Assembly: GCF_003334255.1 (NCBI RefSeq)
Contig: NZ_QOWU01000055.1
DNA length: 38,946 nucleotides
Source: Escherichia coli
GTDB taxonomy: Bacteria; Pseudomonadota; Gammaproteobacteria; Enterobacterales; Enterobacteriaceae
Direction: 5' to 3' (one strand)
Shown: positions 8,895 to 15,180 of the stretch, in pieces
How the letters are laid out: every line of letters begins with the position of its first letter
How positions within the stretch are numbered: the first letter of the stretch is position 1
Made by a program: the position numbers and the translations under genes
Notes under the pieces: model-generated
What the model was told of the DNA's origin: nothing
The model's input: only the letters and a program-made list of their open reading frames with translations
The model's database searches: none

Positions 8895-8934
8895 GACTTG
8901 TAAACCAAATTGAAAAGATTTAGGTTTACAAGTC
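8895..8934. promoter_or_regulatory. bioO: bio operator (BirA-biotinyl-AMP binding site) within the divergent bioA/bioBFCD promoters
   Basis: Imperfect palindrome TTGTAAACCAAATTGAAAAGATTTAGGTTTACAAG at 8898-8932, matching the known bio operator, between divergent bioA and bioB starts. Confidence 0.85.
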
Positions 8935-11910: not shown

Positions 11911-12580
11911 ACGTTATTTTGTCACCGGAACGGATACCGAAGTGGGGAAAACTGTCGCCAGTTGTGCACTTTTACAAGCCGCAAAGGCAGCAGGCTACCG
12001 GACGGCAGGTTATAAACCGGTCGCCTCTGGCAGCGAAAAGACCCCGGAAGGTTTACGCAATAGCGACGCGCTGGCGTTACAGCGCAACAGCAGCCTGCAG
12101 CTGGATTACGCAACAGTAAATCCTTACACCTTCGCAGAACCCACTTCGCCGCACATCATCAGCGCGCAAGAGGGCAGACCGATAGAATCATTGGTAATGA
12201 GCGCCGGATTACGCGCGCTTGAACAACAGGCTGACTGGGTGTTAGTGGAAGGTGCTGGCGGCTGGTTTACGCCGCTTTCTGACACTTTCACTTTTGCAGA
12301 TTGGGTAACACAGGAACAACTGCCGGTGATACTGGTAGTTGGTGTGAAACTCGGCTGTATTAATCACGCGATGTTGACTGCACAGGTAATACAACACGCC
12401 GGACTGACTCTGGCGGGTTGGGTGGCGAACGATGTTACGCCTCCGGGAAAACGTCACGCTGAATATATGACCACGCTCACCCGCATGATTCCCGCGCCGC
12501 TGCTGGGAGAGATCCCCTGGCTTGCAGAAAATCCAGAAAATGCGGCAACCGGAAAGTACATAAACCTTGCCTTGTTGTAG
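11903..12580 (+). CDS. bioD: Dethiobiotin synthetase
   Basis: GTG start at 11903 giving [17 protein letters not shown] (P-loop), 225 aa; overlaps bioC stop by 8 bp. Confidence 0.93.
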
Positions 12581-12593
12581 CCATTCTGTATTT

Positions 12594-12641
12594 GGTTAAA
12601 TTGCGAGCGAGATCGCGTCTTCGATTGACTGCAATTTAACC
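12594..12641 (+). terminator. Large stem-loop (11-bp stem GGTTAAATTGC/GCAATTTAACC, 26-nt loop) after bioD; candidate bio operon terminator
   Basis: Perfect 11-bp inverted repeat read directly, 14 bp after the bioD stop, followed by an A/T-rich tract. Confidence 0.4.
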
Positions 12642-12739
12642 AATTAAATTCTAAAATAATCACGAAAAAAATTTTACTTCCGCCTCATGCGGCGAATGTG
12701 GGAATTGCCCAGGCGGCGGGGGATAGGGGCTGGAGACAG

Positions 12740-12762
12740 TTATCCACTATTCCTGTGGATAA
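12740..12762. promoter_or_regulatory. Pair of inverted DnaA boxes (TTATCCACT, then TTATCCACA on the opposite strand) upstream of uvrB
   Basis: TTATCCACT at 12740-12748 (8/9 match to the DnaA-box consensus TTATNCACA) and TGTGGATAA at 12754-12762 (perfect consensus on the minus strand), 5-bp spacer. Confidence 0.6.
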
Positions 12763-13064
12763 CCATGTGTATTAGAGTTAGAAAACACGAGGCAAGCGAG
12801 AGAATACGCGGCTTGCACGCGAATTGGCGTTAAAGACGGCTCAAAGAAATATCTTTTATTTTTTAACTGGTTAGATAAATGCAATGGCAGTCACTGAACA
12901 GGCATCTCTTGCCATAAAACTGTCATCACTCATCTTGACAAATGTTAAAAAAGCCGTTGCTTTGGGGATAACCCGGTAAGGCCGGAGTTTTATCTCGCCA
13001 CAGAGTAAATTTTGCTCATGATTGACAGCGGAGTTTACGCTGTATCAGAAATATTATGGTGATG

Positions 13065-13084
13065 AACTGTTTTTTTATCCAGTA
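13065..13084. promoter_or_regulatory. LexA (SOS) box of uvrB overlapping a perfect TATAAT -10 hexamer
   Basis: AACTGTTTTTTTATCCAGTA with CTG-N10-CAG spacing (13067-13082); TATAAT at 13083-13088; 70 bp upstream of the uvrB start. Confidence 0.85.
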
Positions 13085-13158
13085 TAATTTGTTGGCATAA
13101 TTAAGTACGACGAGTAAAATTACATACCTGCCCGCCCAACTCCTTCAGGTAGCGACTC

Positions 13159-15180
<2,022 letters not shown>

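Follow-up and report, generated by a model that had tools for sequence, protein, structure and literature searches.

The closest described systems to a hairpin that follows the last gene of an operon differ in what the hairpin is taken to do. Canonical intrinsic terminators combine a GC-rich stem of about 5-14 bp, a loop of 3-8 nt, and a U tract of about 7-8 nt directly 3' of the stem. In Rho-dependent E. coli transcripts, on the other hand, 3' ends are defined and protected by stable stem-loops that lack a U tract, for which protection from PNPase and RNase II is the proposed role (Dar & Sorek 2018, PMC6061677). In MG1655 noncoding DNA, perfect inverted repeats whose arms reach 13 bp or more occur in about 150-fold excess and are conserved beyond expectation, and both the excess and the conservation have been ascribed to template switching (Lavi et al. 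2018, PMC5941160); template switching is also proposed as a creator of RNA hairpins in a bioRxiv preprint (10.1101/2021.04.15.439925). A further point of comparison is the CRP operator, a palindrome of the form TGTGA-N6-TCACA. The hairpin downstream of bioD in E. coli shares features with each of these.

Our comparison shows that the Escherichia hairpin is a single-copy, genus-specific element at the 3' end of bioBFCD that formed around a CRP-type operator already in place. Most Enterobacteriaceae have this operator beyond an NtrC/sigma-54 control region belonging to an ABC ATPase gene that converges on bioD. With the gene and its control region lost in Escherichia, the bioD stop came to lie no more than about 20 nt from the box, and the flanking sequence on the right of the box then turned into the exact complement of its left flank. 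The locus thus offers a stepwise view in which gene loss strands an operator and a perfect 13-bp hairpin then forms around the box in one genus, and it provides a clean natural case for asking whether template switching or selection is the maker of transcript-end hairpins.

The inverted repeat after bioD and its distribution

The window analyzed here (the whole 38.9-kb stretch of DNA) contains the E. coli bioBFCD-uvrB region and is 95-100% identical to E. coli chromosomes across bioD-uvrB. The bioD stop codon (TAG) occupies 12578-12580 on the plus strand and uvrB starts at 13159, leaving a spacer of 578 bp with a GC content of 41.9% against 52.5% for the window, in agreement with the AT-rich spacer of about 580 bp given in a preliminary description of this DNA. 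The RefSeq record of MG1655 carries no annotation between bioD (end 812947) and uvrB (start 813526). The perfect stem begins 12 nt after the stop codon and is 13 bp long (TTGGTTAAATTGC / GCAATTTAACCAA, 12592-12604 / 12631-12643). The 11-bp stem originally described (12594-12604 / 12631-12641) is therefore real and understated, since it sits within this 13-bp perfect repeat. Allowing one mismatch, the stem extends to 16-nt plus-strand arms of 94% complementarity, the left arm TATTTGGTTAAATTGC at 12589-12604 and the right arm GCAATTTAACCAATTA at 12631-12646, with 26 nt between them. A relic of a CRP-type box, TGCGA-GCGAGA-TCGCG (12602-12617, no strand assigned), shares 3 nt with the end of the left arm and then fills the loop's first half, and the variable half of the loop, TCTTCGATTGACT, follows at 12618-12630 on the plus strand. 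To the right of the arms lies an A-rich plus-strand tail without a U tract (12647-12663), the RNA right after the 13-bp core reading UUAAAUUCUAAAAU.

The repeat after bioD is non-random and exceeds what chance would produce. With arms set at 11 bp or longer and the loop at 40 nt or shorter, the window has only two perfect repeats, this hairpin and the bioO operator; in dinucleotide shuffles of the window, repeats of 11 bp or more number 0.305 on average and those of 13 bp or more 0.025. The bare stem has a folding energy of -14.3 kcal/mol and the full RNA fold reaches -20.8 to -20.9 kcal/mol. Folded as RNA, the 75 nt after the bioD stop give -20.9 kcal/mol (z = -3.87, matched by 1 of 200 shuffles), and as DNA -14.2 kcal/mol (z = -4.39); in a longer frame of 106 nt, z is only about -2.2 on either strand. 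In the three lineages given shuffle controls (K-12, L005, and L009), z for the RNA ranges from -3.9 to -5.2.

The other long repeat of the window, the bioO operator at 8895-8934, reads GACTTGTAAACC-N16-GGTTTACAAGTC. The two longest perfect repeats of the window therefore bracket bioBFCD, with no significant similarity between them. A BirA operator consists of a pair of TTGTAAACC half-sites in facing orientation with 16 bp between them, and kinship of the hairpin with bioO was ruled out: its best half-site match carries mismatches at 4 of 9 positions, and 42% of shuffles equal or beat the local alignment of the two elements.

Of 5426 complete E. coli genomes, 5425 carry the 70-nt element, each at a single site; the hairpin is present in all Escherichia species sampled, and the 38.9-kb window holds no second copy. 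Neither the window nor its Enterobacter counterpart gave an Rfam match near any gathering score. Being single-copy and having no Rfam match, the element is not a REP sequence, a MITE, a phage att site, or a mobile element. Matches in phages are records carrying host bio DNA, together with one short partial match at chance level (E = 0.01) in a Leptospira phage. The host-carrying phage records are MF374379.1 (28468-28537) and ON470605.1 (1-4680); phage DN1 is annotated with a transduced bio locus, and the "partial genome" of vB_EcoP-720R6 opens with host uvrB, bioD, bioC, and bioF. Scored over the 13 stem positions, 12-13 pair in all eight Escherichia lineages as against 4-9 in 22 other genera. 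The overall pairing of 63.6% in the whole alignment is driven by the eight Escherichia rows, and conservation of the stem outside the genus was ruled out, as the 51% of cells that pair there compare with a background of 35-46% when the partner column is slid. These alignments indicate a stem specific to the genus Escherichia.

The CRP-type box and the neighboring ABC ATPase gene

A scan of one genome per species covered 80 Enterobacteriaceae bioD loci, in 71 of which uvrB was located. The gap between bioD and uvrB measures about 1.4-1.7 kb in 48 of the 71, a layout that accommodates an ABC ATPase gene. In Enterobacter cloacae, for example, the gap (L034, 3665-4600) holds a lone 240-aa ABC ATPase gene on the opposite strand, overlapping the bioD stop; its product is UrtE/LivF-like (E = 8.7e-54), with a score under the equivalog cut-off. 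Upstream of this gene on the minus strand, a sigma-54-type motif, TGGCA-N6/7-TTGCA, is present in 48 of 48 loci and NtrC-like TGCAC-N6-GTGC motifs in 40 of 48. A CRP-type palindrome, counted across loci with the pattern [TC]G[TC]GA-N6-TCNCN, is found upstream of the gene in 35 of 48, and 33 of these 35 copies are placed at -553 to -561 relative to the uvrB ATG. Reading upstream from the gene, the order is the sigma-54 -24/-12 motif (TGGCAGGCGTTTTGCA), the NtrC-like sites, and then the CRP-type box. The ABC ATPase gene and the sigma-54/NtrC region are absent from Escherichia, Salmonella, Kluyvera, and some Citrobacter (23 of 71 loci), and the box is kept in 12 of these 23.

Boxes from other genera, such as Enterobacter (TGTGATTAAGATCTCA), Pluralibacter (TGTGACCCAAATCACA), Kosakonia (TGTGATGGGTATCTCA), and Pseudocitrobacter (TGTGAGGGCTGTCACG), keep the half-sites and vary in the spacer. 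The E. coli box is orthologous to the TGTGA-N6-TCNCA palindrome located about 557 nt upstream of uvrB in other genera, and in K-12 it matches the CRP consensus at 7 of 10 core positions. Strains of phylogroup B2 have TGTGA in place of TGCGA (L087, NGF1; L088, EPEC O127:H6), an allele that restores the consensus of the CRP half-site and replaces C-G by U.G at the top of the stem. The box predates the hairpin, and in E. coli it is a stranded relic of a CRP-type operator. The loop had been called unusually long, and at 26 nt it is; its length is explained because its first half is this conserved and older CRP-type box. For C. koseri, C. amalonaticus, and C. sedlakii, convergent evolution of a hairpin at the box was considered and rejected, as the predicted structures fold no better than shuffles (z = -1.3 to +0.3).

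A further block, TTAGCTGATAAAWATCAAAAAWTAGCGATAATTTTTTTTTA (L017 4620-4662 and counterparts; window 12636-12680), shows strong conservation in Citrobacter, Pluralibacter, and Pseudocitrobacter and partial conservation in Kosakonia, Kluyvera, and Salmonella. In Escherichia the block is decayed, and its left end is taken up by the hairpin's right arm. The block includes a promoter-like CTGATA-16-GATAAT that is lost in E. coli.

Origin, constraint, and possible role of the arms

The counterpart of the left arm in other genera is the left flank of the CRP-type box (Leclercia TTGGTTAAAATGT, Pluralibacter ATGGTTAAAATGT). The outgroup consensus for this arm, ATGGTGAAAATGT, differs from E. coli at four positions, so that most of the left arm is ancestral. 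Of the 13 positions of the right arm, 8 have changed relative to its outgroup consensus, TTTCGTTAGCTGA, and each change produced a Watson-Crick pair with the left arm; an ancestor represented by that consensus has 3 Watson-Crick and 4 G.T pairs among the 13. By our own arithmetic, independent substitution would give eight pairing changes out of eight with a chance of (1/3)^8, or about 1.5e-4, and the pattern therefore points to selection for pairing or to a single template-switch event. Like repeats made or maintained by template switching (Lavi et al. 2018; quasipalindrome mutagenesis), the hairpin is a long perfect repeat in noncoding DNA shared by related genomes, and one of its arms has become as a whole the complement of the other. 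The pattern is equally expected under selection for pairing, and with the lineages sampled a single-step origin is indistinguishable from selection, which sets the hairpin apart from those template-switch repeats.

Among the eight Escherichia lineages, 4 of 13 columns vary in the left arm, 2 of 13 in the right arm, and 4 of 13 in the remainder of the box, as compared with 10 of 11 in the segment preceding the left arm and 10 of 13 in the loop spacer. Together, the arms vary at 6 of 26 columns and the adjoining pre-arm and loop-spacer segments at 20 of 24. With a spacer-wide mean of 0.37 changes per site, the arms are unexceptional against the spacer as a whole, and the sharp contrast is only with their immediate neighbors. 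No compensatory double substitution was found in the stem among the Escherichia lineages compared; what is conserved is the sequence of the arms and not pairing alone. Three of the six variable arm sites give G.U pairs in plus-strand RNA, one gives G.U on the minus strand only, and two break pairing on both. This 3:1 excess leans toward a stem acting in plus-strand RNA and is statistically not significant. Within E. coli, the sampled variants fall in the pre-arm and the loop, the exception being one C-to-T change that yields a G.U pair at the top of the stem.

Our preferred reading, to which we give a probability of roughly 40%, is that the hairpin is a U-less 3' stem-loop of the bioBFCD mRNA that blocks exonucleases and is a weak terminator at most. 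In the mRNA, the stem-loop would begin 12 nt beyond the bioD stop, with an energy of -14 kcal/mol for the stem by itself and -21 kcal/mol for the complete structure. Efficient intrinsic termination is excluded in this reading because there is no U tract, and leaky pausing or termination over the AU-rich tail is the most that would be expected. The hairpin would mark the steady-state 3' ends of bio transcripts that are terminated by Rho or read through, and by blocking 3'-to-5' exonucleases it would stabilize the bioD mRNA. The significance of the repeat, its location on the plus strand, its presence in every species-level lineage of Escherichia, and the constraint on its arms all support such a role, and a stable stem-loop (-20.9 kcal/mol, z = -3.87) immediately after the last coding sequence and without a U-rich tail resembles those described for Rho-dependent transcripts (PMC6061677). 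Unlike those typical 3' stem-loops, it has an AU-rich stem (31% GC), a 26-nt loop, and downstream sequence that is not clearly C-rich. C outnumbers G by only 11 to 8 in 12647-12700, and G-rich sequence follows (12 C and 23 G in 12701-12760), so that the region would make a poor loading site for Rho. The lack of covariation also counts against a protective stem-loop, as do the position of each arm within a block conserved in other genera too and the finding that perfect inverted repeats can last through mutational bias alone (PMC5941160).

A long-read-based study places bioB through uvrB in one maximal transcription-unit cluster. Across 807397-817046, the Term-seq data of Adams et al. call neither a 3' end nor a Rho region and are uninformative either way for the hairpin, because the whole bio-uvrB region is without calls; the other 3'-end datasets consulted gave no entry for bioD or uvrB. 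Our literature search on a bioBFCD terminator or an element between bioD and uvrB returned nothing relevant. Related lineages provide a comparison. Salmonella has a canonical terminator after bioD, GCAGGATC-AGAC-GATCCTGC, followed by TGTTCTCT. Kluyvera cryocrescens (L045, 3682-3724) and three further loci (L049, L074, and L077) have an unrelated 13-bp hairpin, UUUUUGCGGGUUA ... UAACCCGCAGAAA, with a 17-nt loop; it begins 3 nt after the bioD stop (z = -4.1) and is also without a U tract, and in K. sichuanensis and K. ascorbata its left arm is missing. Some 3' structure after bioD therefore recurs in lineages without the convergent gene, in favor of a transcript-end role. If the Escherichia hairpin does stabilize the 3' end of bioBFCD, it would set BioD output and limit transcription into the uvrB control region, a role that would be unsurprising and of use for annotation and for engineering of the bio operon.

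It is also possible, at a somewhat lower probability, that the hairpin is a neutral product in which a template switch (quasipalindrome correction) copied the complement of the left flank to the right side and the same bias has since kept the repeat perfect. All eight right-arm differences complement a largely ancestral left arm, as a template switch would leave them, and the inferred ancestor was already a weak repeat surrounding a palindromic core; that the arms do not covary is also in keeping with such a history, as are the about 150-fold excess and the conservation of perfect repeats in MG1655 (PMC5941160). A neutral origin accounts less readily for arms that are about four times less variable than their neighbors in lineages whose neutral sites are near saturation. 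Correction should also sometimes fix a mutant on both arms, and no such double changes are seen, and the position exactly at the end of the operon is that expected of a functional hairpin.

Protein-site, terminator, and minus-strand readings

The preliminary description mentioned a protein-binding site as an alternative, and the CRP-type box in the loop gives this some basis, although in E. coli the box would be only a relic. In the form considered here, which we judge unlikely, either CRP or a CRP-family protein binds the box or the arms are half-sites for a dimer or tetramer, and the complex acts as a regulator or as a roadblock that insulates the uvrB upstream region from the bio operon. 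The loop's first half resembles a CRP operator in being orthologous to a conserved palindrome at a fixed distance from uvrB, with a clear phylogenetic footprint in other genera. It also keeps the four critical G/C positions (TG.GA-N6-TC.C.), matches the arms in conservation within Escherichia, and reads TGTGA in B2 strains. The repeat folds significantly as DNA too, and arm sequences conserved without compensatory change are what a DNA site would show. The box differs from a CRP operator in its 7 of 10 core matches in K-12, in drift at key positions among Escherichia species (TATGA...TCACG in L004; TGCGA...ACGTG in E. albertii), and in the lack of an identified partner promoter: pattern scanning and reading of both strands found none at a CRP-compatible distance and none convincing within or beside the hairpin, and the -35/-10-like motif of other genera noted above is lost in E. 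coli. None of uvrB, bioD, and ybhU is named in the main text of the genomic-SELEX study of CRP. The centers of the arms are 39 bp apart, a spacing unmatched to any known operator, and similarity to bioO is at chance level.

The preliminary description also named a bioBFCD terminator or insulator as a possibility. A stable structure on the bioD strand, 12 nt beyond its stop, fits a transcript end, as a strong stem directly after the last gene of an operon would; the hallmarks of an intrinsic terminator are absent, and an efficient Rho-independent terminator is, in our judgment, quite improbable. Only 4 of the 13 pairs are G-C (31% GC), the base of the stem is U-A/U-A, and the tail UUAAAUUCU has at most two contiguous U. 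The AU-rich tail would still form a weak RNA:DNA hybrid, and folding inside the 26-nt loop could shorten its effective length, although the loop sub-folds only weakly. A terminator consensus scan of the spacer did not call the hairpin and called only the DnaA-box repeat (12739-12763) and 12973-12985. That bioB-uvrB forms one maximal transcription-unit cluster argues against efficient termination here, as does Salmonella, in which a true example of the canonical form, with GC-rich stem, short loop, and U tract, occupies the same position.

A minus-strand role, in which the hairpin ends antisense or ybhU-direction transcripts ahead of bioD, is very improbable: minus-strand RNA folds equally well (-22.7 kcal/mol), and the hypothetical ybhU ORF is oriented in that direction, as is an RpoS-holoenzyme SELEX peak (PMC5493296), but no U tract follows the hairpin on this strand (AUACAGAAUGG) and three of the four wobble-compatible substitutions are C.A mismatches there. 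Equally remote is a lineage-specific composite insulator, in which a template-switch RNA stem around a still-occupied CRP-family operator would let DNA roadblock and RNA hairpin jointly stop bio transcription before the DnaA/LexA-controlled uvrB upstream region, and which would link carbon status to read-through.

The spacer has other features of its own. A 45-aa ORF on the minus strand (12747-12884), without current RefSeq annotation, is probably ybhU, a hypothetical gene divergent from uvrB. The RpoS-holoenzyme SELEX peak is at old coordinate 812472, corresponding to about 12882 of the window (PMC5493296), and ybhU has been reported to be UV-induced (PMC3009722). A 69-aa minus-strand ORF that crosses the hairpin (12454-12663) was dismissed as spurious, as it has no Shine-Dalgarno sequence and runs antisense into bioD. 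In strain ZH063 (L003, 3527 onward), the match to the spacer ends at about window position 12926 and prophage genes follow (P27-family terminase); judged from this strain, the spacer appears to be a prophage integration site. In strain VL7S7 (NZ_CM177009.1, equivalent of window 12400-13200), the match is in two pieces, with an annotated IS1 transposase within the spacer. The DnaA-box inverted repeat, GTTATCCAC-N7-GTGGATAAC (12739-12763), which the scan found terminator-like, has 0 of 25 columns variable across all Escherichia lineages and the same sequence in Enterobacter, Salmonella, and Kluyvera. The block around it (12730-12810) is near-identical in Enterobacter, including a 48-aa plus-strand ORF (12687-12833).
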